A stretch of 64,000 bases of DNA, taken from positions 45,217 through 109,216 of the forward strand of contig CAZCME010000013.1 in assembly GCA_964499705.1 (NCBI GenBank), written 5' to 3'. Below the pieces are notes generated by a model, which had not been told where the DNA came from, searched no databases, and worked only from the letters and a program-made list of their open reading frames with translations. Source of the stretch: an uncultured bacterium. Its GTDB lineage: Bacteria > UBA8481. The position numbers and the translations under genes are program-made. Positions 12,975-60,838 of the stretch are shown here, in pieces; position 1 is the stretch's first letter; each line of letters starts with the position of its first letter.

Positions 12975-12994
12975 CGTTTACCTTCCTGTTGTCA

Positions 12995-15492: not shown

Positions 15493-15577
15493 AAAGCCGG
15501 ACCGACGACCCCCACGGATGGGGGAACGGCCTTGGCCGGCAGTGCCGCGAGAGTCCAGGGATGGACGGAGCGGCACA

Positions 15578-17505: not shown

Positions 17506-17532
17506 GGCCTCATCCTTTTTTTCATTGCCGAA

Positions 17533-18510: not shown

Positions 18511-18543
18511 GAAACGCTCGATGCCATGGAAGAGGTCATCGGA

Positions 18544-19329
18544 TTACCGTTTCAGGCTGGACGCTGTCGAGAGGATCGAATCCTGGGTCTGGATCGACTT
18601 GGAATTAACCTCGTAGGCGCGCTGGGCGACGATAAGGTCGATGAGTTCCTCCGCGACGTTCACGTTGGAGATCTCGATGAATCCCTGGCGCAACGCGCCG
18701 GTGCCGTTCTGGCCGGGATTTCCGGTCAAGGGCGGACCCGAGGCCGCGGTTTCGCGGTACGTGTTGGTGCCGAGCGCCTGGAGACCGGCGGGATTGACGA
18801 AGTTGGTGAGCTGGATCGTTCCGACACCCTGAAGAGTGCCGTCCGCGAGCTGCTGCGTCACGATCCCCTGCTGGTTGATCTCGATGTTGACAGCGGTCGG
18901 ATCGACCTGGATCGCGGGCTGCAGAAGGAATCCGGAGTGCGTCACGATCTGACCCGTCGAGTCGCGCTCGAAGGAACCGTCGCGCGTGTAGGCGACCGAA
19001 CCGTCCGGAAGCTGGATCTGGAAGAAGCCGGAACCCTCGATGGCGATGTTGAACTGGTTCTCCGTCTGGCGGAAGGACCCCTGCGTGAAGATCCGCTCCG
19101 TGGAGACGATGCTCGTGCCGTGTCCGACCTGCACGCCGGAAGGAACCTGCGTGCCGACCGAAGACGGCGTGCCTGCGAGATGGACCGTCTGGTAGAGAAG
19201 ATCCTGGAAGTGCGCGCGGGCGCGCTTGAAGCCGGTCGTGTTGACGTTGGCAAGATTATTCGCGATGACGTCGGTGTTGAATTGCTGCGCGGCCAGGCCG
19301 GTCGCGGCCGTGTAGAGGGCTCGGGTCAT
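18544..19329 (-). CDS. flgG: Flagellar basal-body rod protein FlgG
   Basis: 261-aa ORF; N-terminal MTRALYTAATGLAAQQFNTDVIANNLANVNTTGFK and C-terminal LIDLIVAQRAYEVNSKSIQTQDSILSTA are rod-protein signatures; AAGGAG Shine-Dalgarno upstream. Confidence 0.9.
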   Translation of the reverse strand: MTRALYTAATGLAAQQFNTDVIANNLANVNTTGFKRARAHFQDLLYQTVHLAGTPSSVGTQVPSGVQVGHGTSIVSTERIFTQGSFRQTENQFNIAIEGSGFFQIQLPDGSVAYTRDGSFERDSTGQIVTHSGFLLQPAIQVDPTAVNIEINQQGIVTQQLADGTLQGVGTIQLTNFVNPAGLQALGTNTYRETAASGPPLTGNPGQNGTGALRQGFIEISNVNVAEELIDLIVAQRAYEVNSKSIQTQDSILSTASSLKR

Positions 19330-19414
19330 CTAAGGCTCCTTGGTACTGCGATCGCGGCGAATCGGTCGGTCATCGCCGCGCGGGCTTCTCCAAAGAGACC
19401 AGCCCGTAAGTTAT

Positions 19415-19440
19415 TTATCGACCTTTCCAAACTAAACTAA
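19415..19440 (-). promoter_or_regulatory. Candidate sigma-28 (FliA)-type promoter upstream of flgG
   Basis: Minus-strand sequence TTTAGTTT-N11-GTCGATAA resembles the TAAAGTTT-N11-GCCGATAA class; located ~85 nt upstream of the flgG ATG. Pattern match only. Confidence 0.3.
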
Positions 19441-19462
19441 AGGGAACATTTTCGAACAATTA

Positions 19463-20308
19463 TCAGCCGACCCGGCCGACGTCGTTGACGGCCTGACCGA
19501 GGAGCGTGTCATGGGTCTGGACAACCTTGGCGGAAGTCTCGTAGGCGCGCTGCGATTTGATGAGATCGATCATCTCGCGGACAAGATTGACATTGGATTG
19601 CTCGAGCATGCCGGTCCGGAGCTTGGTGCCGAAGAGAAGCTTCTGGGGAGGACCGGACTCGTCCGTGGCGCGAAAAAGGGTATACCCGACCTTTTCCAGG
19701 CCATGGACATTCTCGAAGGATACCAATCTCAGCGCGTCGGCCGTCACCGGATCCTGCCAGAGGTTGACGCCTTCTCCGGTGTAGGTCGGATTCGTGATGA
19801 TCCGACCGTCCGGTTCGAATCGGATATTGGAGGCGTCGACCTTCACGGGACCGTTTTCCCCGAGGACGAGGGCTCCAGCCTGCGTCGCGAGGTATCCTTC
19901 GGAATTGACGATGAAATTTCCGGCGCGCGTGTACATCTTGCCCTGGGGAGTCAGAACCTCGAAGAAACCATAGGATCGCGCCACGCCGGGGATGCCCTCG
20001 ATCGCCATATCGAAGAGATTCCCGGTGTTGATGGTAGCCGGAGAAACCTCGTGAGTGGTGACGATGTCGTCCACCTGGACGCCCGTTCCCACTCGTCCCA
20101 CCGGCGGAGTGAGATCGAATTCGCGCATCGGAGTCACGAGCTTTTCATCGTGCATCCTGTGGGCGAGCATGGACGGGAAATCGCGGTACACGACCGTATC
20201 CTGCTTGAAACCGACCGTGTTGCCGTTCGCGAGGTTGTTGGCGATGACTTCCATCTCCACGCCCCGCGCGATCATCGCCATCGCACCCGTATAAAGTCCT
20301 CGATCCAT
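19463..20308 (-). CDS. flgF: Flagellar basal-body rod protein (FlgF-like)
   Basis: 281-aa ORF; rod-protein N-terminal motif VIANNLANGNTVGFK and C-terminal MIDLIKSQRAYETSAKVVQTHDTLLGQAV. Confidence 0.85.
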   Translation of the reverse strand: MDRGLYTGAMAMIARGVEMEVIANNLANGNTVGFKQDTVVYRDFPSMLAHRMHDEKLVTPMREFDLTPPVGRVGTGVQVDDIVTTHEVSPATINTGNLFDMAIEGIPGVARSYGFFEVLTPQGKMYTRAGNFIVNSEGYLATQAGALVLGENGPVKVDASNIRFEPDGRIITNPTYTGEGVNLWQDPVTADALRLVSFENVHGLEKVGYTLFRATDESGPPQKLLFGTKLRTGMLEQSNVNLVREMIDLIKSQRAYETSAKVVQTHDTLLGQAVNDVGRVG

Positions 20309-20355: not shown

Positions 20356-20961
20356 ATGACCATCCGTCCTCCCGCCTTCGAACGCCTCGTCGATGCCCTG
20401 TCGAGATTCCCCTCGATCGGCCCCAAGACTGCCGCGCGGATCGCGCTCTGGCTTTTGAACCAGCCGCCGGAAGCCAGCGAGCGGATCGCGCGGGCCATCA
20501 CGGAAGCGCGGCAGACAATCAGAAGATGCAGGATCTGTTTCCAGTACGCGGAGGACGAGCTGTGTCCGGTCTGCGCCGATCCGGCGCGGGACAAATCCAT
20601 TCTTTGCGTCGTGGAGGAAGCCGTGGACGTCTGGAGCTTTGAGCGGACCGGGCGATATCGAGGAACCTACCATGTCCTCGGCGGCGCGATTTCTCCATTG
20701 GACGGAATCGGTCCCGACGAGCTGACAGTCCAGGCTCTCTTGGAACGAGTCGCGGATCCCGCGCAGGGAATAGCGGAAGTCATTCTCGCGACCGATCCCG
20801 ACACGGAGGGCAACGCCACCGCGCTCTTCATCGCAGACCACCTGCCGCGGAGCCGCGTCAAGGTAAGCCGACTCGCGCACGGGCTGCCCGTGGGCGGCGA
20901 ACTAGCCTATTCCGACGATGCGACTCTGGCGGAAGCTCTGGCGGGTCGACGGATTTTATGA
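20356..20961 (+). CDS. recR: Recombination protein RecR
   Basis: 201-aa ORF with C4 zinc finger (CRICFQYAEDELCPVC) and Toprim-like region (LCVVEEAVDVWSFERTGRYRGTYHVLGG); divergent from flgF. Confidence 0.9.
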   Translation: MTIRPPAFERLVDALSRFPSIGPKTAARIALWLLNQPPEASERIARAITEARQTIRRCRICFQYAEDELCPVCADPARDKSILCVVEEAVDVWSFERTGRYRGTYHVLGGAISPLDGIGPDELTVQALLERVADPAQGIAEVILATDPDTEGNATALFIADHLPRSRVKVSRLAHGLPVGGELAYSDDATLAEALAGRRIL

Positions 20962-21142
20962 ATCGACACCGGAAGCGAAACTGGCGGACGCAAGGGCCTG
21001 CGCACTTCTCCCTGGGCCTCTGCACCGAGTGGGCTCGATCTCTTTCGTCCGCAATTTTCATGAGACGAGGAGACACGCGTCTTGTGCGCCGGTTTCACCT
21101 CATATAGGATCGATTCTCGTTCAGCAGGGAGGAAAAAGTAGA

Positions 21143-23584
21143 ATGAGAAACAACGCTTCATGTTCGACGTTCCGAATTCGATATTTATTTCTGTCAGGTT
21201 ACTTACTCGCCCTATTCGCAGCGAGTGATACATCCGCCGCCGCGCTGATCTTTCCGGATTCGCCAGGACCGGTTGCCGACAAGGTATTCGGGCAGCCGGG
21301 TTTCATAACCAACACCGCCGGAACATCTCTCGATCAGATGTCTGGCCCTTCTGATATTCTTTTCGACTCCGTCGGTCGGATGTACATTGCGGACCTGAAC
21401 AACGACCGTATTCTAATCTTCGCAAACCAAGACGATACAAGGGCCGATTTTGTGATAGGCGGGCCAATCAGTGGCGCGTTGCCAGGTCTTACCGGGGTTC
21501 CTTCTGGCGCGGGGGCCGATAGGCTGAATGCTCCAACGTTTCTCGCTCTCTTTGACGGCCCGGACACCTCCGTGTTGTTTGTATCCGAACAGTTGAACCA
21601 GAGGGTTCTCGGTTACATCTTAAGGCAACCTGGGTTTTCATTTCTCAGCGACACGCTGGCAGACTATGTCTTTGGGCAACCCACGTTTGATACAAACGTT
21701 ATTTCCAACAATGGCACAGGGGCCTCGTTACTTTCTGCCGTTGGACTTCGGAATCCGGCCGGACTTTCAATCCTGGATACTGGAGCTTCCACGATTTCGC
21801 TTTTCGTTGCGGATAGAACCAACTTGCGTGTTCTCCGGTATGACATCAATAAATCCCTTTTTGGTCTCCCCAATAGCAGCATGGATACAATTCCGGATGA
21901 GTTGTGGGGACAACCCGATTTTATGACTTCCGAACTAACTTTTGCCGTTTCGCGAGAAATCATTAGAGGGCCGCTCGGTGTAGCTTCAACGCCGGACAGG
22001 TTATTCATTGCCGCGGTACAGCCGAGGGTCGTAGTCGAATCTCTCACCGATCCCGACACTTCTTTTGACGGAGTTTATGGTCAGCCCGATTTTACATCTC
22101 AGACTGCCGGAAATGACACCACCTCGCTCGCTTCGCTTTTCTTATCGGTGGCGATAGGTCCAACAAAAAATGTATTAGCGATCATAGACAGGCAAAATCA
22201 TCGTATTCTACTGCACACCGATACTTCAGGCGCAGATATCATTCCCGATGATATTATCGGCGATACGAACTTCGTGGCACCCGTTCTTACCGGACCAAGC
22301 GCACAGTCGCTGCGTCTCCCAACCGCAGCTTATTTCCGATCCGACTCTGAAGTTTGGGTCACCGATTTCGGCAATAATCGCGCCCTGAGATTTGACCGCG
22401 GCTCCAACAACACGCCTGTTGGAAATAATGTGAACGTGACGGAATCGTTTGCAGTCCAAGGATTCCTGGTTACTGTGAAATTCGCATCAGTTTCGCAGGC
22501 GGGCAACACCGAGATCAGGTTACTCGACTCGATCCCACCGCTCGGAACAGATTTCCGCCTGACGAGCGATTCACTCTGTCCATCTTCCGATAATATGATC
22601 TTCCAGATCGGAACGACTGCGATCTTCACAACGGCTCAAGTGACGATCAATTTCAATGATAATGCCTGCCTGAAAAGCCTTTCGGTTCCCAATAAACTGA
22701 GCCTTGAGATGTTGCATTTTGACCTAATCCCGCCAGACCCGGACACCGTGACGTTCGGTAATGCTAATCCGGGAACAAATGAGATCAAAAGCATCGATCT
22801 CACCACGCTTTCGCCCTTTGTCGTCGCGGAGAAGATCTTTCGCGATCTCACACCGCCGACTATCACAATCGAAATCGAGAGCGGACATGTTTTTCATAAC
22901 TACGACGAGCCGGTTTTCAAGCCCAAGTCATTTGTGACGCTCAGCGCGACGGACAGCTCCGGAGTTTCCACGTTTGAGTGGCGGATCGATGATGGCGAAT
23001 TCCAAAGCTACTCCGAACCGTTCCAGATTGGCGAGAGCGTCGCGCGATCGAAGGGGGCGAATCCGAAGTCTGAAACGCACGTTCTGACAGCGCGAGCAAG
23101 CGACGTCTTCGGTAATACAGAGGAAACGCATCTCATATTCCGACTTGCGTCAAACGGACAACCGCGCGTTGATCGCAGCGTGCAGAACCTCACTATCCAA
23201 AGGGGAACTCTTCACATTTTCTCGATGCTCGAAAGCATTCAATTCGACCTCGGAGAGGAGATCGTTCTCACCATTGTATATGAGAATTCGCAGGATGTTT
23301 ACCGGCCTAACAATCCAAACCCGACGCCCGATGGAGGACAAACGATCGTCAGCATTTTAGATTCCCTTGGTCGCGAAGTCCATTCGCAAAGACGACACCC
23401 CGATCCTGATCCCGCGAAAGTCACGATCGGTATGGGCGAGAAATTAACCTACTCCTATTCCGTCATTTCGAAGATGTTTCCAAATGGTCTGCCTGCGGGT
23501 CGATACACCCTTGTGATTCAGTTCCGCGGCGAGTTTGCCGGACATCATGCATTCGAGGTAATGGACGATGACAGCGTCAAATAA
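21143..23584 (+). CDS. Secreted NHL-repeat beta-propeller protein with C-terminal beta-rich extension
   Basis: ORF 20918..23584 trimmed to Met 21143 (GGGAGG Shine-Dalgarno 10 nt upstream; signal peptide MRNNASCSTFRIRYLFLSGYLLALFAASDTSAAA). Repeated GQPGF/GQPTF/GQPDF and (A/S)DxxNxR(I/V)L motifs; gene is visibly lower in GC than its flanks. Confidence 0.75.
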   Translation: MRNNASCSTFRIRYLFLSGYLLALFAASDTSAAALIFPDSPGPVADKVFGQPGFITNTAGTSLDQMSGPSDILFDSVGRMYIADLNNDRILIFANQDDTRADFVIGGPISGALPGLTGVPSGAGADRLNAPTFLALFDGPDTSVLFVSEQLNQRVLGYILRQPGFSFLSDTLADYVFGQPTFDTNVISNNGTGASLLSAVGLRNPAGLSILDTGASTISLFVADRTNLRVLRYDINKSLFGLPNSSMDTIPDELWGQPDFMTSELTFAVSREIIRGPLGVASTPDRLFIAAVQPRVVVESLTDPDTSFDGVYGQPDFTSQTAGNDTTSLASLFLSVAIGPTKNVLAIIDRQNHRILLHTDTSGADIIPDDIIGDTNFVAPVLTGPSAQSLRLPTAAYFRSDSEVWVTDFGNNRALRFDRGSNNTPVGNNVNVTESFAVQGFLVTVKFASVSQAGNTEIRLLDSIPPLGTDFRLTSDSLCPSSDNMIFQIGTTAIFTTAQVTINFNDNACLKSLSVPNKLSLEMLHFDLIPPDPDTVTFGNANPGTNEIKSIDLTTLSPFVVAEKIFRDLTPPTITIEIESGHVFHNYDEPVFKPKSFVTLSATDSSGVSTFEWRIDDGEFQSYSEPFQIGESVARSKGANPKSETHVLTARASDVFGNTEETHLIFRLASNGQPRVDRSVQNLTIQRGTLHIFSMLESIQFDLGEEIVLTIVYENSQDVYRPNNPNPTPDGGQTIVSILDSLGREVHSQRRHPDPDPAKVTIGMGEKLTYSYSVISKMFPNGLPAGRYTLVIQFRGEFAGHHAFEVMDDDSVK

Positions 23585-23729
23585 TGGCAGTGAAACTTCT
23601 TACATAACAATTGCGGACCAGATAGATCCTGTATTATACTGGTTTCGGATAAAGGGCATCAGTCGTTACTGACCCTTATCCTTGTTCCAGGATTCCATTG
23701 ACTGTGAACAATATTGCATCGGAGCTGAA

Positions 23730-24788
23730 ATGAAGCGCGTCGAACCCGCCTTGGTCAACGTGAAATTCGCGAAATTCCCGACGCCAACTGCTGCCGTTCT
23801 TGAGCTGACGAACAGATGCAACGAACAATGCATTCACTGCATTCGCGAATCACCCGATCTACGATTCGACGACGAACTTGCGACCGCCGAATGGCTGAAG
23901 GTCGTTGATGATCTTGCGGACATCCGTACTTTTTCCGTATGTCTGACGGGTGGAGAGTGCACGATCCACCCCGGGTTCCTGGAAATCATCGACCGATGCC
24001 GAAGCCATCGCATTAATGTGTCGATAAAGACAAATGCACTTTCGTTGGCGCGAATCGCGCCGATGCTAGCGCGCAAGGGAGTCGGATTCATTGAAATCTC
24101 GCTGTACGGCGCGACACCGGAATCGCACGATCGGTGCACCCGGATTTCCGGTTCATTCCAGCGTCTCGTCGAGGGTGTCAAGGCGGCGAGAAAAAACGGT
24201 ATTCCAGTCTCCATGAACGCGATTGTCTTTCGATGGAATGCTCATGAGGCTCTTGCGATGCGCCGGCTTGGCCAGGAACTGGATTGCCCGATCAAACGCG
24301 ACTTCATGCTCTCGACCACCGATCTTGGCAGGCACCTCGATCTGGAATTGGTGACGTCTGCCCAGATTCGAGAAATCGAGTCGATCTGGCCCATGAACAC
24401 GCTGCCGGGCGCGCAGAACCGTCTTTCCCGGGTAAAAATCTGTACTCAGGGCATGAACACAGTCTGCGTAACCGCGCGTGGCGAAGTACTTTCATGCGTC
24501 ACGATCCGCAAGCCGCTCGGCAACGTCAGAAAAAATGGCCTCGCCGATACCTGGCTCACCACGACGGGAGGTCACAGCGGTGCAGCCCGGCGAGCGCATG
24601 ACGTGGACTACGGGAATTTCACTCGCTGCGAAGCGTGCAAGCATCTTCCGGTCTGCAGCGTCTGCCTGGGACAAAACTTCGCCGCCACCGGCAGCTTTTA
24701 CGAACCTCCCCTTGAAAGATGCTTTATTACCATGTCATTATTCGGTAACAAGGAAGGGATGGAAAATGGAAAGGAAGTCCATGCGTAA
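23730..24788 (+). CDS. Radical SAM enzyme with C-terminal SPASM/twitch-like cysteine cluster (putative peptide maturase)
   Basis: ORF 23682..24788 (TTG) trimmed to ATG 23730 with GGAG upstream. CNEQCIHC (Cx3Cx2C) radical SAM cluster near the N-terminus; C-terminal CEACKHLPVCSVC auxiliary-cluster motif. Confidence 0.8.
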   Translation: MKRVEPALVNVKFAKFPTPTAAVLELTNRCNEQCIHCIRESPDLRFDDELATAEWLKVVDDLADIRTFSVCLTGGECTIHPGFLEIIDRCRSHRINVSIKTNALSLARIAPMLARKGVGFIEISLYGATPESHDRCTRISGSFQRLVEGVKAARKNGIPVSMNAIVFRWNAHEALAMRRLGQELDCPIKRDFMLSTTDLGRHLDLELVTSAQIREIESIWPMNTLPGAQNRLSRVKICTQGMNTVCVTARGEVLSCVTIRKPLGNVRKNGLADTWLTTTGGHSGAARRAHDVDYGNFTRCEACKHLPVCSVCLGQNFAATGSFYEPPLERCFITMSLFGNKEGMENGKEVHA

Positions 24789-25045: not shown

Positions 25046-25705
25046 ATGCCCTACTACGTCAGCATCGGTGGACAGAATTACGGACCGGCCGAGCCGGACG
25101 AGCTCCAGAAATGGCACAAGGCGGGTTCCTTCAATCCCACTGACTTCGTATGGAATGAAGACGCCAACGAGTGGACCGAGGCGGCCCGGTTCGCGCCGCT
25201 GGCGCACCACTTCGATACGGCGGCGGCACCGGCCGTGGGCATCGAGGAGATCGACGAGCTTCCGCGCGAACAGAGCGCGCTTCAGCCGGCCGCGGGTCCC
25301 GAAACCGAAAGCTGGTGCGCGAACCATGAGACGAACAGAGCGACGGCGGTCTGCCCCCATTGCCGGAAATCCTTCTGCGCCCAATGCATGGTCTCGACGG
25401 GAGGAATCTCCGTCTGCATCGACTGCGTCAGCTCCGAAAAGGGCTCCGCGACTAAAAGTCCGAAGCGCACGGTCCTTCTGATCGGCGCCGTCATCGTCCT
25501 CATCGGCATCGCCGTCGGATCCTATCTCTTCTTCGCTCCGAAGCCCATCGAGCAGCCGGCCACGCCGGAGCTGATCGAACTGAAGCGAGGAGATGCGCCG
25601 GCCTCTCTGGCGGCGCCGGACAAGGCCGCCCCTCCCGCTGAAACTCCGGACACATCCGATTCGTCGGCCGGAGCCGTTGCTCCTTCAGATACTTCCACAC
25701 CATGA
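25046..25705 (+). CDS. DUF4339-like N-terminal domain / zinc-finger / single-pass membrane protein
   Basis: N-terminus MPYYVSIGGQNYGPAEPDELQKWHKAGSFNPTDFVWNEDANEWTEA; Cys/His cluster CANHETNRATAVCPHCRKSFCAQCMV...CIDC; TM helix VLLIGAVIVLIGIAVGSYLFF; Pro/Ala-rich C-terminus. Stop overlaps the glnD start (ATGA). Confidence 0.6.
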   Translation: MPYYVSIGGQNYGPAEPDELQKWHKAGSFNPTDFVWNEDANEWTEAARFAPLAHHFDTAAAPAVGIEEIDELPREQSALQPAAGPETESWCANHETNRATAVCPHCRKSFCAQCMVSTGGISVCIDCVSSEKGSATKSPKRTVLLIGAVIVLIGIAVGSYLFFAPKPIEQPATPELIELKRGDAPASLAAPDKAAPPAETPDTSDSSAGAVAPSDTSTP

Positions 25706-34826: not shown

Positions 34827-35849
34827 CTAAACGACTAACTCCTGCTGCGTCAATGTTGGAATGTTGGAGAATGTCCCCCTGATTGCTTCGGCAAGGGCTC
34901 CTTTGCGCCTGTCTTTTCGCATGCGAGAAACGATCATCGAATAATAACCATTCGGGTGGCGATCGCCGTCCTCATGCTGGATACGGTCGTAGGTCCAGCG
35001 GGCCAGCTCATGCGCAATGTAGATCGTGAGTTCGCGGTGCATCGCCTCGATCGACGACCATGCCTGGCGGCGCATTTCGGATGTGGCCATGACGAACCGG
35101 TCGGCCATCTGCTGAAGATCGCTCCAGGACCACGACACGGCGTCGCGGTCCATCGTGCGTCGCTTTCTGGTTTCTTCGAACCGCTGACGGCGTTCCGTCT
35201 GGAGTTCGATACGCTTTCGAAATAGATGCGAGCTCATGAAACGGCCGTTATGGCCCTCGCGAAACAGTGTTTCGTTGGATTCTGCGTTGAGTTCATTGAA
35301 CCATCTGTCCAATACGCCCAACTGTTTAACATGATCGAAGGAGGAGATGTTCTTTCCGAAGAGTTGCTCGGCGAGCAGATGCCGGTCGACGCGATTTCTC
35401 TGGGTTCCCATGCCCAGCATTTCCCGCGCACTGCACCAAGGATAAAGAAGCGGATCGCGTACGAAACCGGCACGGACTGGATTGAGGATGATGTAGGCGA
35501 CGACGGTTTCAAAGTAGGACTCCGTCTCGATGACGAGCGACTTCGATCTGCCCTGGAAGAGGTGGCCGGTCCGGTCGTGGCGTCGGTTGAGTTCCTGAGA
35601 GGCGCGCGTCAAAAATCGCCGCAGGAATTCCGAAATGTCGCCGCCGGGCGTTCGAAGGCAGAAATGAAAATGATTCGGCATGAGACAATAGGCATACGTG
35701 ACGACGCGAAACATCTTTGCCGACTCGAAATAGAGATCGAGAAATCGACGGTAATCGGACTCGTGCTGGAAGAACGGGTGCTTGTCGACGAAGCGATTGA
35801 GGACGTGGTAGACGGCGTCCTTGTAGGCGATGCGTGGACCTCTGGACAT
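34827..35849 (-). CDS. IS200-like Y1 (HUH) transposase, REP-associated tyrosine transposase (RAYT)-like
   Basis: 340-aa ORF; HUH motif CLMPNHFHFCL and tyrosine motif VAYIILNPVRAGFV align by eye with the PEHMHCIW and YIYINPVK regions of E. coli RayT; N-terminal AVYHVLNR. C-terminal codons read through a repeat copy. Confidence 0.75.
   Translation of the reverse strand: MSRGPRIAYKDAVYHVLNRFVDKHPFFQHESDYRRFLDLYFESAKMFRVVTYAYCLMPNHFHFCLRTPGGDISEFLRRFLTRASQELNRRHDRTGHLFQGRSKSLVIETESYFETVVAYIILNPVRAGFVRDPLLYPWCSAREMLGMGTQRNRVDRHLLAEQLFGKNISSFDHVKQLGVLDRWFNELNAESNETLFREGHNGRFMSSHLFRKRIELQTERRQRFEETRKRRTMDRDAVSWSWSDLQQMADRFVMATSEMRRQAWSSIEAMHRELTIYIAHELARWTYDRIQHEDGDRHPNGYYSMIVSRMRKDRRKGALAEAIRGTFSNIPTLTQQELVV
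34851..34878 (+). repeat. 28-bp REP-like repeat, copy 4
   Basis: Exact CAATGTTGGAATGTTGGAGAATGTCCCC; inverted partner of copy 3 with a 193-bp spacer; lies inside the last ~17 codons of the transposase ORF. Confidence 0.8.
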
Positions 35850-35860
35850 GGCGATGTCTC

Positions 35861-36202
35861 CTATCGGCTTGCGGTGCGGTCGAAATAGTCGCGGACGATG
35901 TTACGGAAGCGTGTGGATCGATGAGGAAGTTCGGCGAGCCATCGCATGTATGTCGGGTCGCGCCGGCTGATCTCCTCGAGCGACCGGCCGCGATGCTTGC
36001 CGAACGCGATTCGATGCGACCTGCCGTGGGGAATCAAACCGGATCGCTTCCGTTCGAAGTTATCGCTGCAGGCGGCTGAATAGACCTCGTCGGCCTTCCG
36101 GAAGGCTTCGTCTTCCGATAGGCCGATACTTCTGAAAATTCCGAATGCACAGGCGCGATCCTGCTCCGGGCTGGTCACTTTCCGCCGATCCTGTTTCGCC
36201 AT
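35861..36202 (-). CDS. Small protein with exodeoxyribonuclease X C-terminal-like (DUF3820-like) motif
   Basis: ORF 35861..36373 trimmed to Met 36202 (MAKQDRRKVTSP...); IAFGKHRGRSLEEISRRDPTYMRWLAEL resembles the FGKYKG...DP.YL.WL motif of that family (recalled, not searched). Confidence 0.45.
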   Translation of the reverse strand: MAKQDRRKVTSPEQDRACAFGIFRSIGLSEDEAFRKADEVYSAACSDNFERKRSGLIPHGRSHRIAFGKHRGRSLEEISRRDPTYMRWLAELPHRSTRFRNIVRDYFDRTASR

Positions 36203-36286
36203 TGTGGTCTCCTTTCGTGATTGAGTGTCATACAGAGCAGAAGTTGTGCCGGCAGAAGTGCTTATTTTCCAGCAAGAGCATATCCG

Positions 36287-36332
36287 GAAAAGTGTCGAAT
36301 CCTGGACACATGTCCAGAATTCGACACTTTTC
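36287..36332. promoter_or_regulatory. 46-bp imperfect dyad symmetry, candidate operator
   Basis: GAAAAGTGTCGAAT-CCTGGACA-CA-TGTCCAGA-ATTCGACACTTTTC; 14-bp outer arms perfect, inner arms 7 of 8; located ~85 bp upstream of the small gene preceding the transposase. Confidence 0.3.
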
Positions 36333-36551
36333 ACGCACAGGATTCTCAGGATCAACAGGATGAAAACCGGCAAATCATATATTTTGAACGTTCATCCTAT
36401 CCTGTGGATCCTGCTCAATATTGAAGCGAAAATAATATTTGCAGTGGCTATAGAGCTCGGGTATTGACTACGGGGACAGATATTTCTTGGATTGGAGCGC
36501 AGCCAGGATTTTGACTGCCGGCTGCAAAAATGTGTTCTATGATGAAAATGG

Positions 36552-37496
36552 ATGAAAATGGGCCGTCCAATCACTTTTCAGTTGTTGATTGGATCTATTC
36601 TTTTACTTTTTGCCGACGAAGGTCCCGCCGGAATCTGCCTTCTCTATTTCAGTCAGAACATCGCTACTTTTGGTCGAATTGCGTTTCATTCACGATCCAG
36701 ACGAATGATCGCGCTCGGCCTCATTCTTATTTTGGTTCAGATATTTTTTTGCATGAAACTTTTCTTTGCTCTCACGCTAGACACATTCGAGTTGCTTCTT
36801 CGCAACAACTTTATTCCTGCCGTTTTCGTTTTCTTCCTCGAAGGTGCGACAGTCGATGAGGCAATGGCGAAGCGCGCCGGCTTTTGGATCTTTCTAATTA
36901 ACTGGGCGATTCTCTCGGCCGGTATGATTGCGTTTGCTCGACTAAAAGCTGAGCACCACCTTCAATTCGCTATCATTGCGTTGGTAGCTCTCTGCAAAGG
37001 ACTGTCGCAACTGGCGCCAACATTGCGTGAAAACCGCAAGCGAACTCCGTTTGGGCACGCGGCATACGGGGTACTCGTTCTGATAATGCTATTCGGTTTC
37101 TATCACACAATTGGAAGCGAGCGTCCATCTGTTGATTACGCGGGCGCGCTTGAACGTGCATTAACGACAGGCGATTCAGAACAAGCGATTGCGCTTTTGC
37201 AATTAACCAATCCTTCCGGGCAAATCGTGGTCGCCCACCAGGTCGACGGCACACCTGCAATCGAGCTCGCGCTGCAATCTCAGTTGCCGCAGGTTCGCAA
37301 AGCGGCAATTAGAACGTATGAGGTCTGGATGATCAACGCCGTCGATCGGGATCCATCCGATCGTGATGACCTTGAACGTCGCTACAAATCTCACATGACC
37401 CCGCTACTGTCCGATCCTGTATCAAGAATTCAAGAACTGGCGAGGGAAGCATATGAAAATCCAAAAGGCTATTCGGGATGGAGAAGCCCGTTCTAA
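36552..37496 (+). CDS. Hypothetical membrane protein with C-terminal helical-repeat region
   Basis: 314-aa ORF in an AT-richer stretch; several hydrophobic helices then a soluble C-terminal part (ALLQLTNPSGQIVVAHQVDGTPAIELALQSQLPQVRKAAIRTYEV); start uncertain. Confidence 0.45.
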   Translation: MKMGRPITFQLLIGSILLLFADEGPAGICLLYFSQNIATFGRIAFHSRSRRMIALGLILILVQIFFCMKLFFALTLDTFELLLRNNFIPAVFVFFLEGATVDEAMAKRAGFWIFLINWAILSAGMIAFARLKAEHHLQFAIIALVALCKGLSQLAPTLRENRKRTPFGHAAYGVLVLIMLFGFYHTIGSERPSVDYAGALERALTTGDSEQAIALLQLTNPSGQIVVAHQVDGTPAIELALQSQLPQVRKAAIRTYEVWMINAVDRDPSDRDDLERRYKSHMTPLLSDPVSRIQELAREAYENPKGYSGWRSPF

Positions 37497-37627
37497 TTTT
37501 CGTGACTGTGAAAGGAGATATTCTCTACATTCCTACATTTAAATAAATGAGTTGCAGAAGCGTCATTCCGGCGAATACAAAATTTGCATTTGCTCTGAAC
37601 AACTGCCTTCTCTAACTCCATCATCCT

Positions 37628-37669: not shown

Positions 37670-38035
37670 ATGGAATTCGATCGCATACCGGGGGACACCG
37701 TCACTCGCTTCATTCTCTCAGGCTCCATGGAGACGGGGCGGTTCGAGCGGTTTCGCTTCGAGGCCAAGGATGCCGTCATCCCGCAGTCGCCCCACCTGAT
37801 GCTCGATGTGTCCGGCGTCGACTTCATCGATTCGTGCGGGATCGGGACGATGATCGAGCTCTTCAAGCACACGAAACTCCACGGCGGGGAGCTCATCATC
37901 GCGGGAATGCAGGAGCACCTCGTCAAGCTCTTCCAGATGCTGAAGCTCGATACGTTCTTCACCATGGTGCCCGACTTATCCGCCGGAGAAGCTCTGCTGG
38001 CGAAGATTCGCCGCAGGGATCAGGGCGTGTCATGA
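37670..38035 (+). CDS. STAS-domain protein (anti-sigma-factor antagonist-like)
   Basis: 121-aa ORF; LMLDVSGVDFIDSCGIGTMIELFKHTKLHGGELIIAGMQEHLVKLFQMLKLDTFF is a SpoIIAA/STAS pattern. Confidence 0.75.
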   Translation: MEFDRIPGDTVTRFILSGSMETGRFERFRFEAKDAVIPQSPHLMLDVSGVDFIDSCGIGTMIELFKHTKLHGGELIIAGMQEHLVKLFQMLKLDTFFTMVPDLSAGEALLAKIRRRDQGVS

Positions 38036-39477
38036 CGCCGGAGAACGACAAGGCTCCGGCGGAATCGGTTTTGCCCGGGTCCGCGTCCCCGAAAACCGCT
38101 CAGCTCGAATCGATCTTCTCCCAGCTCGACAAGATCCAGAAGCAGGTTTCACTGACGAGGCACGAGCGGCCGATGACGGAGATGTTCTTCGAAGTGCGCG
38201 AGCGGAAGTCGGTCCTCTTCGCCAACATATCCCGCGCCGTTCTGAAAAGCCTTTCCAGCCACGATCGTATGATGACAATGATCCGCAGCTCCATGTCGCG
38301 GGAGGAAAAATCGCGCGAATTGAAGGCGAGTTCCGCGGTCATTCTTCAGGATGTACTCTCCGCACTGGCAGCATCGCTGACGACGCGCGAGAAGGAACTC
38401 GTCCTCCTGGAGATCATCGACGAGGTCCTCGGCCTGGGCCCCATCGAGCAGCTGATCCGGGACCGGGAGATCGGGGAGATCATGATCAACGGGCCGGACT
38501 TCATTTTCATCGAGCGGCGCGGCAAGATCGAGCTTACTCCGCTGAAATTCCAGGATACCGAGCACCTCATGAAGACGGTGGAGAAGATCCTCTCGCCGGT
38601 GGGCCGCCGCGTGAACGAGTCGACTCCCTGTGTCGACGCGCGCCTGGCGGACGGCTCGCGCGTCCACGTCGCCATCGCTCCGGTCGCCCTGAACGGCCCT
38701 CTCGTGACGATCCGGAAATTCCCGGAGCGCGCATTGACGCTCGACGACTTGATCGACGCGGGCACGCTCTCTCCGGCCATGGCGGATTTCCTGAAATGCT
38801 GCGTGGAAGGACAGTTGAATATTCTCGTGTCCGGAGGAACCGGCAGCGGAAAAACCACGCTCTTGAATGTGCTCGGCATGTTCATCCCGAGCGGAGAGCG
38901 GATCGTCGTCATCGAGGATTCGGCGGAACTGCAGATCCACCGGATGCACGTCAACGTCGCGCGACTGGAATCCAAGCTGGCCAACATGGAAGGGCGGGGC
39001 GAGATCCCGATCCGCGAATTATTGAGGAACGCGCTCAGGATGCGGCCAGACAGGATCGTCATCGGCGAGGTACGCGGAGGCGAAGCGTTCGAGATGCTGC
39101 AGGCGATGAACACCGGGCATGACGGCTCTCTTTCCACGGCGCACGCGAATTCGCCGATGGACATGATCCACAGGCTGGAAGGGATGTGCCTGATGGCGGG
39201 GCTCGACCTTCCGATTCCTGTCATCCGGCGGATGATCGCGGGAGGCCTCAACCTCATCATCCAACAGAACCGCCTGAAGGATGGAACTCGCCGAATGGTG
39301 GAAATCTCCGAGGTTGCCGGCATGGAGGACGGTCACGTCAAACTCCAGTCGCTCTGGAAATTCCGTTCGACCGGAACCGACGCGCGGGGAAGAATCGCGG
39401 GAGCGTTCGATCGATCGGCTCACCAGCCCAAGTGTCTCGACAAGCTCGTCTCGGCGGCGACGGAACTGAACCTGTAG
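38032..39477 (+). CDS. CpaF/TadA/VirB11-family secretion ATPase, orphan
   Basis: ATG 38032 overlaps the STAS stop (ATGA); Walker A VSGGTGSGKTTLLN, Walker B/Asp box IVVIEDSAEL, His box GHDGSLSTAHANS. The upstream 160 codons of track ORF 37552..39477 are out-of-frame read-through. Confidence 0.8.
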   Translation: MTPENDKAPAESVLPGSASPKTAQLESIFSQLDKIQKQVSLTRHERPMTEMFFEVRERKSVLFANISRAVLKSLSSHDRMMTMIRSSMSREEKSRELKASSAVILQDVLSALAASLTTREKELVLLEIIDEVLGLGPIEQLIRDREIGEIMINGPDFIFIERRGKIELTPLKFQDTEHLMKTVEKILSPVGRRVNESTPCVDARLADGSRVHVAIAPVALNGPLVTIRKFPERALTLDDLIDAGTLSPAMADFLKCCVEGQLNILVSGGTGSGKTTLLNVLGMFIPSGERIVVIEDSAELQIHRMHVNVARLESKLANMEGRGEIPIRELLRNALRMRPDRIVIGEVRGGEAFEMLQAMNTGHDGSLSTAHANSPMDMIHRLEGMCLMAGLDLPIPVIRRMIAGGLNLIIQQNRLKDGTRRMVEISEVAGMEDGHVKLQSLWKFRSTGTDARGRIAGAFDRSAHQPKCLDKLVSAATELNL

Positions 39478-53257: not shown

Positions 53258-54427
53258 ATGTGTATTTTGGGATTTGGATTAATGTACACAGTCGAAGTGC
53301 GCGACGCGAAGGCGGGCATGACGCTCTCGCGGCCGGTCTTCACCCGGAACGGAAACCTGCTCCTCGATGCCGGCACCCGCCTCTCCGATCATACCCTCGA
53401 CCTGCTCGATCTCTGGGGCATCTTCGACATCCAGGTCGATTCGATCGACTCGCCTTCCGGTCACGCGCCCGCTCCCCGGCAGAAGAAAAAGTTCGATCCT
53501 GTGAAGCGCGAGGCCGAGAAGAAGCGAGTGGAGGATGTGGGCGGCTGGGTGCGCGATGAGATCGAGGGTCTCATGAAGCAGATGAATTCCGGGGGAAGGG
53601 ACATCGACATGGAGCGGCTCAAGGGAGTCGCGGAGTCGATCGTGGAGGAATCCATGAAGGACAACGAGCTGATGGTCTCCCTGACGACGCTCATGGACTT
53701 CGACAGCTATCTCTTCTCGCACGCCGTCCACGTCTCGATTCTCTCCGTCGTGATCGGCATCGCGATGGGCCTCACGCAGAAGGAAATCCAATCGCTGGCC
53801 ATCGGAGGAGCGCTCATCGATCTCGGAATGCTTAAGGTGGACCGGAAAATATGGGATAAGGACGGCGTCCTGTCGGAAGCCGAGTTCAACTTCGTGAAAC
53901 AGCATCCGCTCCTGGGATTGAAGGACGCCGAGCCGCACTGCCGGGGCGATGTGGCTTCTCTCCGGATCATCGCGGAGCATCACGAGCGGCTGGACGGATC
54001 GGGCTATCCCCGGAAGCTGCGGGACAAGGCGATTCATCCTCTGGCGAAGATCGTCGCCGTCTGCGACATCTATGACGCGATGCAGCAGCCCCGCGCCTAC
54101 AGGAAGAAGTGGCTCCCCTACCAGGTCATGGGCCATCTGCTCGTCTCGTCCACGGAGACCCTGGACGCGCAGGTTGTGAAGACTTTTCTCCGCACGATGT
54201 CCGCGTATCCCATCGGATCGTTCGTGAAGATGGATACCGGCCAGGTCGGCGTCGTCGTCTCCTCCAATCCCGCCAGCCCGATCCGACCTGTCGTGAAGCT
54301 CTTCCTGCTGGCTTCGGGAGAGACCATGGAGAAGCCGGAATTCGCGGATCTTTCCGCCGATAAGAGATTCATCATCGGACCGATCGATCCCCGCCAGATC
54401 CACGTCAAACCCTTCGATGTTTTCTAA
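53258..54427 (+). CDS. HD-GYP domain phosphodiesterase (c-di-GMP-type)
   Basis: HD motif (HAVHVS) and EHHERLDGSGYPRKL GYP signature. Alternative start at Met 53282 (MYTVEVRD...) would place the inverted heptamer segment in the 5' leader. Confidence 0.8.
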   Translation: MCILGFGLMYTVEVRDAKAGMTLSRPVFTRNGNLLLDAGTRLSDHTLDLLDLWGIFDIQVDSIDSPSGHAPAPRQKKKFDPVKREAEKKRVEDVGGWVRDEIEGLMKQMNSGGRDIDMERLKGVAESIVEESMKDNELMVSLTTLMDFDSYLFSHAVHVSILSVVIGIAMGLTQKEIQSLAIGGALIDLGMLKVDRKIWDKDGVLSEAEFNFVKQHPLLGLKDAEPHCRGDVASLRIIAEHHERLDGSGYPRKLRDKAIHPLAKIVAVCDIYDAMQQPRAYRKKWLPYQVMGHLLVSSTETLDAQVVKTFLRTMSAYPIGSFVKMDTGQVGVVVSSNPASPIRPVVKLFLLASGETMEKPEFADLSADKRFIIGPIDPRQIHVKPFDVF

Positions 54428-54439
54428 AGCGACGACGGG

Positions 54440-55966
54440 ATGAATTCTCATTCCGGGATCGCGCGGTGCCGGACCGCGGTCCTGTCCGGGATAGACGCTC
54501 TTCCGGTGGATGTGGAAGTGGATATCGGGCGCGGATTGCCGGGCCTCAAGTGCGTCGGGTTGCCGGGCGCCAGCGTGAAGGAATCGGAGGAGCGGGTCAA
54601 ATCGGCGATCCGGAAATCGGGCTTCGACTGGACGAGGAAGCGGATCACGGTCAATCTCGCGCCCGCCGACCTGCGAAAGGAAGGCTCCGGTCTCGACCTC
54701 CCCATCGCCCTCGGAATTCTCGCCGCTTCCGGAGCGCTGCCTCACGAAGCGCTGGAAGGATGGATGGTCCTCGGGGAATTATCGCTGGACGGCCAGCTCC
54801 GCCCGGTCCGCGGCGCCTTGAATTTCGCGATGCTGGCCCGCCGCTCGGGCGTCAGGCGATTGCTGGTTCCGCAGGAAAATGTCGCGGAAGCCTCGCTCTG
54901 CCATGACGTGGATGTCCACTCCGCGCGGAATCTTGCTGAAGCGGCTGCGCTGTTGCCGGCCCCCGGTGCTGTTCCACCTCGTGCGCCCGCGTCGGCGATT
55001 CCGGAAAGCGACCTGGACTTCGCGGATGTCCGCGGACTTTCGACACCGCGCCGGGCCGCGCTTGTCGCCGCGGCGGGCGGCCACAATATTCTCATGATCG
55101 GGCCGCCCGGTTCCGGGAAGACGATGATCGCGCGACGCTTTCCGACGATCCTGCCGGCGCTGGAATTCGACGACGCCCTGGAGATGCTCCGGATCCATTC
55201 CGCGGTCGGCCTGACCCTGAACGGCACGCTCCCGTCGATTCCTCCATTCCGCGCCCCCCACCATACGACCTCCGCGGTCGGCATGATCGGCGGCGGCCAT
55301 CCGATGCGGCCCGGCGAAGTGTCGCTGGCGCACCGTGGCATTCTCTTCCTGGACGAGCTGCCGGAATTCCGCCGCGATCTCCTGGAGTCGCTGCGTCAGC
55401 CGATCGAGGACGGGCACGTCACGGTGACGCGTGCGTCGGGATCGGCGAATTTCCCCGCGAAGTTCATGCTCGTCGCCGCCATGAATCCCTGCCCCTGCGG
55501 CCAGCTCGGCTCGGACATCCCGTGCGAATGCGCGCCGTCGCAAGTCGGCAAGTACATGCGCCGCATCTCCGGTCCGCTCCTGGACCGCATCGATATCCAC
55601 CTGGAGGTTCCGCGCCGGCCGTACCGCGAGACATCCGCGAACGCGCCCGGCGAAACATCCGCTTCGCTGCGGCAGCGGGTGACCGAGGCGAGAACGCGCC
55701 AGAATCTGAGATATGCGAAGGCTCGATATCGCACCAACGCGCAGGTTTCCGCGAAGGCGTTTCGGCAGTCCTTCGAAGCGGAGGAGGCCGCGCACGAACT
55801 GCTGCGGGAATCGGTCGACGGGCTCGGATTGTCCGCGCGCGCCGCGGAGAAGGTGGAGCGCCTGGCGCGGACCGTCGCGGACCTGGCGGGGCGGGACCTG
55901 GTCACGGAAGACGATGTCGCCGAAGCGGTCGGCTACAGGACGCTCGACAGGCGTTGCCGCGCATGA
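54440..55966 (+). CDS. comM: YifB/ComM-family Mg-chelatase-like AAA+ ATPase
   Basis: N-terminal Lon-protease-like domain, Walker A MIGPPGSGKTMIA, Walker B ILFLDELPEF, and Cys cluster NPCPCGQLGSDIPCEC typical of the family. Confidence 0.85.
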   Translation: MNSHSGIARCRTAVLSGIDALPVDVEVDIGRGLPGLKCVGLPGASVKESEERVKSAIRKSGFDWTRKRITVNLAPADLRKEGSGLDLPIALGILAASGALPHEALEGWMVLGELSLDGQLRPVRGALNFAMLARRSGVRRLLVPQENVAEASLCHDVDVHSARNLAEAAALLPAPGAVPPRAPASAIPESDLDFADVRGLSTPRRAALVAAAGGHNILMIGPPGSGKTMIARRFPTILPALEFDDALEMLRIHSAVGLTLNGTLPSIPPFRAPHHTTSAVGMIGGGHPMRPGEVSLAHRGILFLDELPEFRRDLLESLRQPIEDGHVTVTRASGSANFPAKFMLVAAMNPCPCGQLGSDIPCECAPSQVGKYMRRISGPLLDRIDIHLEVPRRPYRETSANAPGETSASLRQRVTEARTRQNLRYAKARYRTNAQVSAKAFRQSFEAEEAAHELLRESVDGLGLSARAAEKVERLARTVADLAGRDLVTEDDVAEAVGYRTLDRRCRA

Positions 55967-57933
55967 AGAAGGAGGATATTCGAAACCAGCTGCGAGGATT
56001 GCAGGCTCTGCAGGGGCTCGCGCCGTCGTTCCTCGACGAGATCGCGGAACTGGGGGTGGAAAGAACATACGCGCGCGATTCGATCGTCATATCCGAAGGG
56101 CAGGTCGTGGAACATTTCTTCGTGATACTCGGAGGACGGCTGCTGGCTCACTATGGCGACAAGGTTGTTTCGCACATGGAGCGAGGCGACACGTTCGGCC
56201 AGCTGAGCCTGATGGCGGAAGTGCCGTCGCTCGTCACCGTGAAGGTGCGGCACGACGCGCGGCTCCTGCACGTTCCGCGCAATCTCTTCCGGAAAGCGCT
56301 GGCATCGAGCCCGGAGTTCGCGGCGCAGATCTTCAAGGGTTCCGCCGCGCGCCTCGCGACGATCAACCAGGAGACGAGGACGCGCCAGCCCGTCATCGTC
56401 GCCGTGCATTCGGCGCCCGCGGGAGTCGGCAAGACGAAGTTCGCCATCAACCTGGCGTGCGCCATGGCCGCGGAAAATGCCGGCCGCGTGCTTCTTGTCG
56501 ATGTCGCCACGGAGAAAAAGCGCTTCATCGACATCTTCGGTTTCGGAGGATCTCTGCCTCTTGTCGATCTGCGGGACATCGAGACATCGAGCCGGGACGC
56601 GGTGCGGGAAAAAACGCGAAAGCACGATGCCGGGTTCGAGATACTCCGCCTGGCCCATCGCGGGAGCTCCGCGAGCGCGGACCAGACGCGCGAGGACGAG
56701 GCGGTCGCGCCGCTGCTTTCATCGCTGTCCCGGACATTCCATTACATCGTGACCGATCTGCCTCCGGTCATGGACGCGACCGTCTGGAAATTCCTGACGC
56801 ACGCCGATACCGCGATCATCCTGACGTCGGCCGAGCCGGTCCATCTCGCGCAAACAGCCAATCTCCTCGGAAAGCTGCCCGGCAAGGCCAGGGTCCTTGT
56901 GACGCGGGCCACGACCGAGCTCGAAGCCAAACGAGAAACGATCGACACCGCGCTCGGACAGCGCGTGGACGAATTCCTCGAGGAGCTCCCGGAAGGCGAT
57001 GAAATCGCTTTCATCTCCCGCCCGGGATCCCGCTACGCCTCGGCGGTACGCCGCCTCGCTCGCGGCATCCTCGGCCGGCTCGTGGGCCTGGCGCTCTCCG
57101 GAGGCGCCGCGAGAGGGATGGCTCACATCGGCGTCCTGAAGGTGCTGGAAGAGGAAGGCATCCGGCCCGATATCATCGCCGGAACTTCGATGGGGGCCCT
57201 GATCGGCGGGATGTGGGCGTCCGGGAGCAACGCGGCCGTATTGGAAAGGATCGCGCGGAGGATCCGACGGAGCGAGTTCTTCAGCATCTTCGACCTGGCC
57301 CTGCCGCCTTCGTCAGGGCTCCTTCGCGGCACCAAGGTCGATCACTTCATCCGCGGCGTCTTCGGCCAGAAGCGCTTCTGCGACCTTCTGATTCCGCTCC
57401 GGGTCATCGCCACCGACATCGACACGGGAGATCACGTCGTCTTCGATCACGGTTCCGTGGCCGACGCCGTCCGGTCTTCCGTGGCCATCCCCGGAATCCT
57501 GAAGCCGAACATCGTCGACGGCAGGCGCCTGACGGACGGCGCCGTCATCGCTCCCGTTCCCGTCGATACGCTGCGGGAGGCGGGCGTGTCCCGGATCATC
57601 GCCGTCAACGCGATTCCCACCGCCGAATGCTTCCGCGATTACAGCCGTTCGGCGATCCAGCCCGCGGCGGGACGGAGCGATTTTCTCGCGCGCCTCTTCC
57701 ATTTCAGCACCCGCGACGTGCCAAGCCTTCTCGATATCATCGTCCGCTCGAACCAGTTCATGGAGGCGGCGATCGCGGAACATTCCTGCCAGGGCGCCTC
57801 GGTCATCATCCGCCCGTGGCTCCCGGAACTGCACTGGATGGATTTCGACTCCGCGCCGCGCTTCATCGAGTCCGGCGTCAAGGCCGCCAGGGAGGCGATG
57901 CCGGAGATCAGGGAGATGATGAATGGGGGATAA
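55963..57933 (+). CDS. Three-domain fusion: cNMP-binding domain / ParA-MinD-like P-loop domain / patatin-like phospholipase
   Basis: ATG 55963 overlaps the comM stop (ATGA); the upstream part of track ORF 55522..57933 is out of frame. cNMP-binding (ISEGQVVEHFFVILGGRL...GDTFGQLSLM); P-loop AVHSAPAGVGKTKFAINLA with Walker B IVTDLPP; patatin motifs SGGAARG, GTSMG, TDGAV. Confidence 0.75.
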   Translation: MKKEDIRNQLRGLQALQGLAPSFLDEIAELGVERTYARDSIVISEGQVVEHFFVILGGRLLAHYGDKVVSHMERGDTFGQLSLMAEVPSLVTVKVRHDARLLHVPRNLFRKALASSPEFAAQIFKGSAARLATINQETRTRQPVIVAVHSAPAGVGKTKFAINLACAMAAENAGRVLLVDVATEKKRFIDIFGFGGSLPLVDLRDIETSSRDAVREKTRKHDAGFEILRLAHRGSSASADQTREDEAVAPLLSSLSRTFHYIVTDLPPVMDATVWKFLTHADTAIILTSAEPVHLAQTANLLGKLPGKARVLVTRATTELEAKRETIDTALGQRVDEFLEELPEGDEIAFISRPGSRYASAVRRLARGILGRLVGLALSGGAARGMAHIGVLKVLEEEGIRPDIIAGTSMGALIGGMWASGSNAAVLERIARRIRRSEFFSIFDLALPPSSGLLRGTKVDHFIRGVFGQKRFCDLLIPLRVIATDIDTGDHVVFDHGSVADAVRSSVAIPGILKPNIVDGRRLTDGAVIAPVPVDTLREAGVSRIIAVNAIPTAECFRDYSRSAIQPAAGRSDFLARLFHFSTRDVPSLLDIIVRSNQFMEAAIAEHSCQGASVIIRPWLPELHWMDFDSAPRFIESGVKAAREAMPEIREMMNGG

Positions 57934-58018
57934 ATACGAAGACACGAAGTTTGATATTCAACACAATTCTTTTGCTTTTCTCTTCGCGTCCTGGTGTCTT
58001 CGTGGTTAAATCCCACTC

Positions 58019-59506: not shown

Positions 59507-59523
59507 GAACTACGCGGCTTCCT

Positions 59524-60057: not shown

Positions 60058-60092
60058 ATTCCAAAACCGGTTATCTGATATTCGAATTCACC

Positions 60093-60165
60093 GGGCGCGT
60101 AACTCAGCGGCTAGAGTGCCACCTTCACACGGTGGAAGTCGCAGGTTCAATCCCTGCCGCGCCCA
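60093..60165 (+). tRNA. tRNA-Val (anticodon CAC)
   Basis: 73-nt cloverleaf folded by hand: acceptor GGGCGCG/CGCGCCC, D-stem ACTC/GAGT, anticodon stem CCACC/GGTGG with loop TTCACAC (anticodon CAC), T-stem GCAGG/CCTGC with loop TTCAATC, discriminator A; CCA not encoded. Confidence 0.85.
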
Positions 60166-60266
60166 GGATCAGCGGCTGCCATCCATCAGCGGGAGGAAAT
60201 TCGTGTGAATCGGAAGCGCGAAGATTTTTCAGAATATCGGCCCATCGCTCGCGACTTCATGGTGCC

Positions 60267-60791: not shown

Positions 60792-60838
60792 TGCGCGCCA
60801 TGGACGAAGCCGCGGCCGTGCGATAACCTCCGTCGCGG

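Follow-up and report, generated by a model that had tools for sequence, protein, structure and literature searches.

A recurring gene pair of a STAS protein and a CpaF-type ATPase outside Tad loci in uncultured bacteria, and a probable regulatory role for the STAS protein

What does a hexameric ATPase of the CpaF/TadA family, to which the motor of tight adherence (Tad) pili belongs, do beside a small STAS-domain protein and with no pilus genes around it? The question is raised by two genes at positions 37670-39477 of a 64-kb stretch of contig CAZCME010000013.1 (assembly GCA_964499705.1) from an uncultured bacterium, here called the window, in which the stop codon of a STAS gene overlaps the start codon of the ATPase gene. 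The open reading frames (ORFs), their domains and the junction proved to be exactly as given in a preliminary description of the locus, which had gone on to tie the ATPase to a partner-switching-like module or a non-secretory role. The window is from a Candidatus Hydrogenedentota metagenome-assembled genome (MAG). Public-collection proteins identical to the members of the pair carry the names of such MAGs, and the record for the identical STAS protein, MEK8024027.1, bears the title 'STAS domain-containing protein [Candidatus Hydrogenedentota bacterium]'. Our reading is that the two genes are a self-contained module, inherited together, in which the STAS protein would be the dedicated binding partner and regulator of a divergent CpaF paralogue. 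We give this reading a probability of roughly 0.55, a figure that covers the regulatory pair and not the identity of the machine downstream of it.

RESULTS

Recurrence of the pair and its coupled junction

The coupled pair recurs in five further metagenomic loci (L002, L003, L085, L086 and L171, with fetched stretches of about 10 to 21 kb), which span 36-67% GC (guanine plus cytosine). This brings the number of independent loci to six, every one of them from a metagenome or MAG. The junction is ATGA with a 4-nt overlap in L002, where the ATPase is 67% identical to that of the window, in L085 (a Hydrogenedentota MAG of 36% GC) and in L171; it is TGATG in L003, also a Hydrogenedentota MAG, and in L086 (67% GC) the two genes are separated by a 3-nt gap. 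The deposited protein model of the L003 ATPase (1089-2600; P0008, 371 aa) is N-terminally truncated, since the frame stays open as far upstream as an ATG overlapping the STAS stop codon; when re-extended, the protein is ~503 aa long and includes the conserved N-terminal motif described below. Homologues of the ATPase start at the same point as the window ATPase.

A 4-nt overlap is by itself common within operons. The neighbors of the pair, however, vary by locus (aconitase/ribF-truB, an antitoxin in L003, hypothetical genes/PNP, and response regulators), with a downstream ribF-truB-rbfA-infB context common to L002 and L003. As controls, 160 ordinary CpaF loci were fetched from genome and metagenome collections and searched with a hidden Markov model (HMM) built from the STAS proteins of the linked loci and SpoIIAA. 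Recurrence in five loci with unrelated flanks, against a STAS ORF in 0 of the 160 controls, places the pairing beyond chance; it is not accidental. By STAS identity and by ATPase identity alike, the six loci fall into the same three groups (Pearson 0.68), and this agreement by locus fits vertical co-inheritance of the partners. No Shine-Dalgarno-like sequence precedes the ATPase start in L002 and L171, and because several junctions lack such a sequence, the ATPase is probably translated by termination-reinitiation from the STAS gene, by which the STAS:ATPase ratio would be fixed. A promoter and terminator scan gave no signal exceeding the shuffled expectation.

A STAS protein with a conserved Asp-Ser motif

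The STAS protein matches Pfam STAS with 57.6 bits (E=1.2e-15) and also STAS_2, and reaches 47 bits with the NCBIfam anti-sigma-antagonist superfamily model, which is under that model's cutoff. Asp54 and Ser55 are invariant in six aligned STAS sequences (five upstream STAS proteins and the downstream STAS of L086) and align to D57-S58 of Bacillus subtilis SpoIIAA, in which S58 is the phosphorylated serine, and the STAS of L171 reads FIDSAALG at the corresponding motif. The protein is therefore a single-domain STAS protein with a conserved serine at the position that is phosphorylated in SpoIIAA.

A CpaF-family ATPase outside the curated cutoffs

The ATPase matches Pfam T2SSE with 210 bits (E=4e-62), and the Caulobacter CpaF structures 8RKD and 9E24 match its residues 104-460 with 353 bits. 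It has the Walker A, Asp box, Walker B/catalytic Glu and His box of T2SSE proteins and keeps every position that is invariant in a family alignment of 38 CpaF sequences, among them R341, G345, E346 and R348 in the Walker B region, where D340 is nearly so (at least 90% of sequences), and G362, H363, D364, G365, S366, T369, H371 and N373 in the His box. An AlphaFold2 (AF2) model with a mean predicted local distance difference test (pLDDT) score of 83 begins with a disordered tip and an N-terminal helical bundle, after which come the usual N1 and C-terminal domains. The best NCBIfam model is the TadA-family TIGR03819, with 301.8 bits against a cutoff of 373.15, and the protein also lies under the curated cutoffs of all other models, including those named for VirB11, TrbB and FlaI. 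It is a member of the CpaF family by fold and motifs, yet by its genomic setting it does not qualify as a Tad motor, and its scores stay under the curated family cutoffs.

Two features appear to set the STAS-linked ATPases apart as a distinct lineage. One is the N-terminal motif RPxT[D/E], in which R46, P47 and T49 are invariant in five aligned STAS-linked ATPases and which, among the 120 best database matches, is confined to STAS-linked ATPases; in the model it occupies a low-confidence loop just ahead of helix 49-76. The other is a two-residue insertion past the Asp box, where the loop spacing is 11 residues in six of six STAS-linked ATPases and also in the first halves of double-CpaF proteins, which carry two such domains in tandem, compared with 9 in 126 control-locus CpaF ORFs and 110 matches among the listed homologues (~236 single-domain CpaFs).

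Scans with the ATPase returned generic CpaFs alone, at 56% identity or less, in the genome collection and, among the matches listed, in the metagenome collection. In word-indexed homologue searches, the STAS protein retrieved nothing but itself, and an alignment of the ATPase N-terminal region gave no match at E<=0.01. An exhaustive profile search with the N-terminal region matched two proteins among 1.84 billion representatives, one of them an ATPase-STAS fusion, and the STAS-linked lineage is therefore rare or thinly sampled.

The top-scoring tandem proteins P0003-P0007 (817-838 aa) contain two CpaF-type ATPase domains, and one of them, P0004 (L004 1436-3922), is encoded in a Tad-like locus with a VWA protein, TadB, TadC and TadE. 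We rejected these proteins as orthologues of the ATPase, since the two ATPase domains inflate the score and P0004 belongs to a real Tad locus.

Tad genes are missing beside the pair and present in the controls

Pfam annotation, which covered most of the larger ORFs of the window, gave no pilin, TadB/C, TadZ, RcpC, secretin or prepilin peptidase there. A T2SSF HMM and phmmer searches with Flp, TadE, TadG, RcpC, secretin, TadB/C and VWA queries found no Tad component in the window either, and the Tad-protein searches recovered nothing beyond the ATPase itself and, with the TadZ query, a weak match to a ParA domain. The earlier statement that pilin, secretin and platform genes are missing nearby thus holds for all 64 kb. 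The fetched stretches of the five related loci likewise contain no Tad, type II secretion system (T2SS) or type IV pilus (T4P) gene and no T2SSF match, and in none of the six loci is the ATPase encoded with TadB/TadC, TadZ, Flp, RcpC and a secretin.

T2SSF (TadB/C-type) matches were obtained in 129 fetched loci, nearly all within the control set. Tad components including TadZ are present in the control loci L087 and L169, and Tad genes also occur in L004. The nearest relatives of the ATPase without a STAS partner, by core distance, are P0012, P0115 and P0014; all three sit in Tad loci, and two of these loci (L087 and L169) are complete, own ATPase included. Comparison of the loci supports the view that the layout in the window is not that of a standard Tad locus.

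A second STAS, a fusion and a phosphatase in a sister group

L086 and L171 form a sister group in which the module gains a second, downstream STAS. The second STAS gene of L086 overlaps the 3' end of the ATPase gene, while in L171 a STAS domain is fused to the C terminus of the ATPase (P0122); the fused domain shares 42% identity with its free-standing downstream ortholog in L086, and in the fused copy the serine is replaced by Ala. Seen on one contig, the fusion resembles a "Rosetta stone" signal, by which fused genes point to proteins that associate physically. In both loci a receiver-PP2C (SpoIIE) phosphatase gene directly adjoins the module, and upstream lie a receiver protein and a receiver-HD-GYP/HDOD protein.

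DISCUSSION

The STAS protein is probably a phospho-switchable regulator of the ATPase. We favor direct STAS-ATPase binding, with its state set by serine phosphorylation, because the Asp-Ser motif is conserved, a fusion exists, a receiver-PP2C phosphatase adjoins the module in the sister group and the junctions are coupled. The STAS protein would be made in a fixed ratio with the ATPase and would bind it directly, and binding would gate assembly of the ATPase hexamer, its turnover of ATP or its docking. Phosphorylation of Ser55 would set this gate, through a kinase and a phosphatase that would be encoded elsewhere in the genome, and in the sister lineage the adjoining receiver-PP2C phosphatase would dephosphorylate the STAS protein in response to a phosphorelay. 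The most speculative step is that the ATPase may be an alternative, signal-gated motor on a type IV filament or a Tad-like platform encoded elsewhere; an ATPase with every CpaF hallmark could still dock on such a Tad platform.

Several points weigh against a regulatory pair. An RsbW/SpoIIAB-like (HATPase_c_2) kinase was found neither in the annotation of the window nor among the called genes of the five other loci, and neither a PP2C phosphatase nor a receiver is present in the window, L002, L003 or L085, so that the STAS protein could instead be a constitutive subunit. All canonical CpaF features are present in the ATPase, and nothing in it therefore opposes ordinary pilus work. Since the unfused genes overlap by 4 nt, the fusion on its single contig could be a frameshift artefact. 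The two-residue insertion is also found in tandem double-CpaF proteins from real Tad loci, and a neighbor-joining tree of the ATPase core gives no single STAS-linked clade, so that monophyly of the lineage rests on the motif and the insertion only. The proposed link to partner switching is therefore upheld in part: the recurring coupled pair, the conserved serine, the one fusion and the receiver-PP2C phosphatase in two relatives speak for it, but parts of a full switch are missing, with no RsbW/SpoIIAB kinase or sigma factor in any locus and no phosphatase in the window.

Comparison with known systems shows where the pair departs from each of them. The Caulobacter CpaF/TadA motor of the Tad (type IVc) pilus shares with the window ATPase the T2SSE fold, the catalytic boxes and the predicted succession of N-terminal helical bundle, N1 and C-terminal domains. 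The window ATPase differs in having no TadB/TadC, TadZ, Flp, RcpC or secretin genes alongside, in the coupled STAS gene that precedes it, and in its RPxT[D/E] motif, its two-residue insertion and a score under the NCBIfam TadA-family cutoff. The SpoIIAA/RsbV modules resemble the pair in their single-domain STAS protein with an Asp-Ser motif and, in the sister lineage, in an adjoining PP2C phosphatase with receiver input, but they include a GHKL kinase and a sigma factor, neither of which is present in the pair loci, where a hexameric secretion-type ATPase takes the position of the partner.

The preliminary description had reasoned from the premise that STAS domains usually partner kinases or anti-sigma factors, and this is too narrow. 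The STAS protein MlaB is physically bound to the ABC-transporter ATPase MlaF and supports its activity or stability, and in Pseudomonas the HsbR-HsbA system combines a receiver-PP2C protein with a STAS switch that has a non-sigma target. STAS switches also act on enzymes, as in Anabaena, where the receiver-PP2C protein HenR and its STAS switch (HenR-All4160) act directly on a glycosyltransferase (PMC13555669). The likeness to MlaB-MlaF lies in a small STAS protein encoded with a P-loop ATPase, and MlaB-MlaF chains are among the weak Protein Data Bank (PDB) matches. However, the ATPase here is of the T2SSE/CpaF and not the ABC type, no Mla genes are present in the window, and the STAS protein scores only 29.8 bits against NF033618 mlaB (cutoff, 90) and is nearer the anti-sigma antagonists (47 versus 30 bits, both below cutoff). 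The likeness to HenR-All4160 and HsbR-HsbA is found in L086 and L171, where a response-regulator-PP2C protein stands beside a putatively phosphorylatable STAS protein, but a CpaF-type target is not reported for those systems, and in the window lineage no phosphatase lies within reach of the pair.

The ATPases of type IV filaments have several known regulators, among them the TadZ/CpaE receiver-ParA proteins, the cyclic di-GMP-binding MshEN domains and PilZ/FimX. Like the STAS protein as proposed here, these are accessory proteins or domains that link motor activity or localization to signaling; to our knowledge, no STAS protein is among them. The canonical control loci L087 and L169 encode TadZ, but the STAS-linked loci lack it. 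Full-text literature searches found no paper linking STAS proteins to CpaF, TadA or pilus ATPases, and a review of single-domain STAS proteins includes no ATPase or pilus partner.

The best-surviving alternative, which we nevertheless consider unlikely, is that the ATPase has no part in a pilus and is the output, or a substitute for the RsbW kinase, of a partner-switching variant, for example as a cytoplasmic remodeling or translocating ATPase. It would account for the lack of any Tad, T2SS or T4P gene in the window and in the five other fetched stretches, for a GHKL kinase missing from every locus despite the conserved phospho-Ser position, for the purely signaling neighbors in L086 and L171 (receiver-HD-GYP/HDOD, receiver and receiver-PP2C) and for an N-terminal region of the ATPase unlike that of canonical CpaF. 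On the other hand, the platform-facing and catalytic features of CpaF are all kept, the closest relatives are genuine Tad motors, and we know of no T2SSE-family ATPase that acts as a protein kinase. The absence of pilus genes near the pair is moreover weak evidence, because pilus genes are often scattered. The full form of this idea, a free-standing signaling machine with the ATPase recruited as output or kinase equivalent of a partner switch and with no pilus or secretion apparatus at all, seems to us slightly more doubtful again; if it is true, the T2SSE/CpaF superfamily would gain a new functional class, and STAS switches a new class of output.

Simple relocation, by which a rearrangement displaced the ordinary Tad motor of the organism to lie beside an unrelated STAS gene, agrees with the full set of CpaF features in the ATPase and with the IS200/REP-type transposase gene and low-GC segment next to the pair, which point to local rearrangement. 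We regard it as improbable, since the STAS-ATPase junction is kept in six loci despite different flanks and very different GC content, a fusion of STAS to ATPase exists and the STAS-linked lineage has its own motif and insertion. The complete Tad loci of the nearest relatives, moreover, keep their own ATPase, which argues against a merely displaced motor, and no control locus has a STAS ORF.

It is very improbable that the pair is an accessory cassette of two genes that moves horizontally, for example one with an anti-phage function or of plasmid origin: the differing genomic positions and two of the neighbors (the transposase in the window, the antitoxin in L003) would suit it, but PADLOC gave no meaningful match (its sole match was P-loop-only, E=0.004), the GC and codon-position GC of the pair are host-like (0.59/0.37/0.83 for the STAS gene, typical for genes of the window) and unlike those of the neighboring segment, L002 and L003 share their downstream genes, and the STAS and ATPase groupings track the loci.

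If the STAS protein does regulate the ATPase, a STAS phospho-switch wired directly to a type IV filament motor would be a new control principle and would add to the outputs other than sigma factors that partner-switching modules have. Because the pair is small, conserved and easily expressed, the idea is directly testable, and it would offer a first functional handle on an uncharacterized module in a phylum, Hydrogenedentota, none of whose cultured members is well studied. The chief limit on this weight is that the pair family looks rare, with six loci.

Table 1. Features of the STAS-ATPase pair in the window
Feature	Position	Strand	Remark
STAS gene	37670..38035	+	single-domain STAS protein, 121 aa
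Asp54-Ser55 codons (GAT TCG), motif FIDSCGIG	37829..37834	+	candidate phosphorylation site
ATGA stop/start overlap, STAS stop and ATPase start	38032..38035	+	direct sequence reading
ATPase gene	38032..39477	+	CpaF/TadA-family hexameric secretion-type ATPase, 481 aa; paralogue without Tad linkage
N-terminal motif R46-P47-M48-T49 (RPxT[D/E])	38167..38178	+	specific to STAS-linked ATPases
Walker A GGTGSGKTT, residues 268-276	38833..38859	+	alignment columns invariant or nearly so
Loop LQIHRMHVNVAR, residues 300-311, two-residue insertion past Asp box	38929..38964	+	
Walker B / catalytic Glu region DRIVIGEVRG, residues 340-349	39049..39078	+	
His box GHDGSLSTAHAN, residues 362-373	39115..39150	+	

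OTHER FEATURES OF THE WINDOW

The pair is surrounded by genes of housekeeping or unrelated function, namely those for AlaRS, RuvX, asparagine synthase and the IS200/REP-type tyrosine transposase and by the low-GC segment with a membrane-protein gene; past it lie two GT2 glycosyltransferase genes and one for a PMT_2-family protein on the other strand, followed by IF3, L20, PheS/T and ZapA. Directly upstream of the STAS gene, positions 34827-37600 look like an inserted segment. It holds a 340-aa IS200/REP-associated tyrosine-transposase-like gene (34827-35849, minus strand), an ORF with an ExoX-like C-terminal motif (35861-36373, minus strand) and a 314-aa ORF (36552-37496, plus strand) predicted to encode about six membrane helices together with a soluble C-terminal part, in a stretch of 43-50% GC. 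The 314-aa ORF has no Pfam, NCBIfam or PADLOC match and no homologue in the related loci; as a candidate platform protein it was rejected, given its low-GC segment and the lack of a homologue in any other locus.

Farther off, the window contains genes for the flagellar rod and rings, a cluster of cytochrome genes and genes for cyclic-nucleotide signaling. The flagellar basal-body cluster (15046-20308, minus strand) encodes FlgF/G-type rod proteins, FlgA, FlgH, FlgI and a rod-binding FlgJ-like protein and is followed by RecR (20356-20961). The cytochrome genes (8164-13897, minus strand) form an unusual bc-type respiratory cluster, in which a 955-aa multi-haem cytochrome c with FixO/cbb3-like parts stands beside cytochrome b, split into N- and C-terminal parts, and a Rieske protein. 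At 20918-24788 an 888-aa protein with a weak NHL-repeat match precedes a radical-SAM/SPASM enzyme. Third-position GC is unusually low in both genes (0.55-0.62 against a genome value of ~0.8), which may mark the region as a foreign island or as a locus for peptide maturation. GYF_2-domain proteins are encoded at 25046-25705, ~12 kb upstream of the pair, and at 13987-16086 of L086, ~5 kb downstream of the pair there, which is probably a coincidence. The dense cyclic-nucleotide signaling cluster at 53258-64000 includes an HD_5 (HD-GYP-type) protein, a cyclic nucleotide monophosphate (cNMP)-binding protein (60132-60791), a CHASE2-adenylate/guanylate cyclase that continues past the end of the window and a fusion of cNMP-binding, ParA/MinD-like and patatin domains (55522-57933). 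The ORF of the fusion overlaps a ChlI/YifB-like gene at 54440-55966, and its start is probably downstream of that gene.

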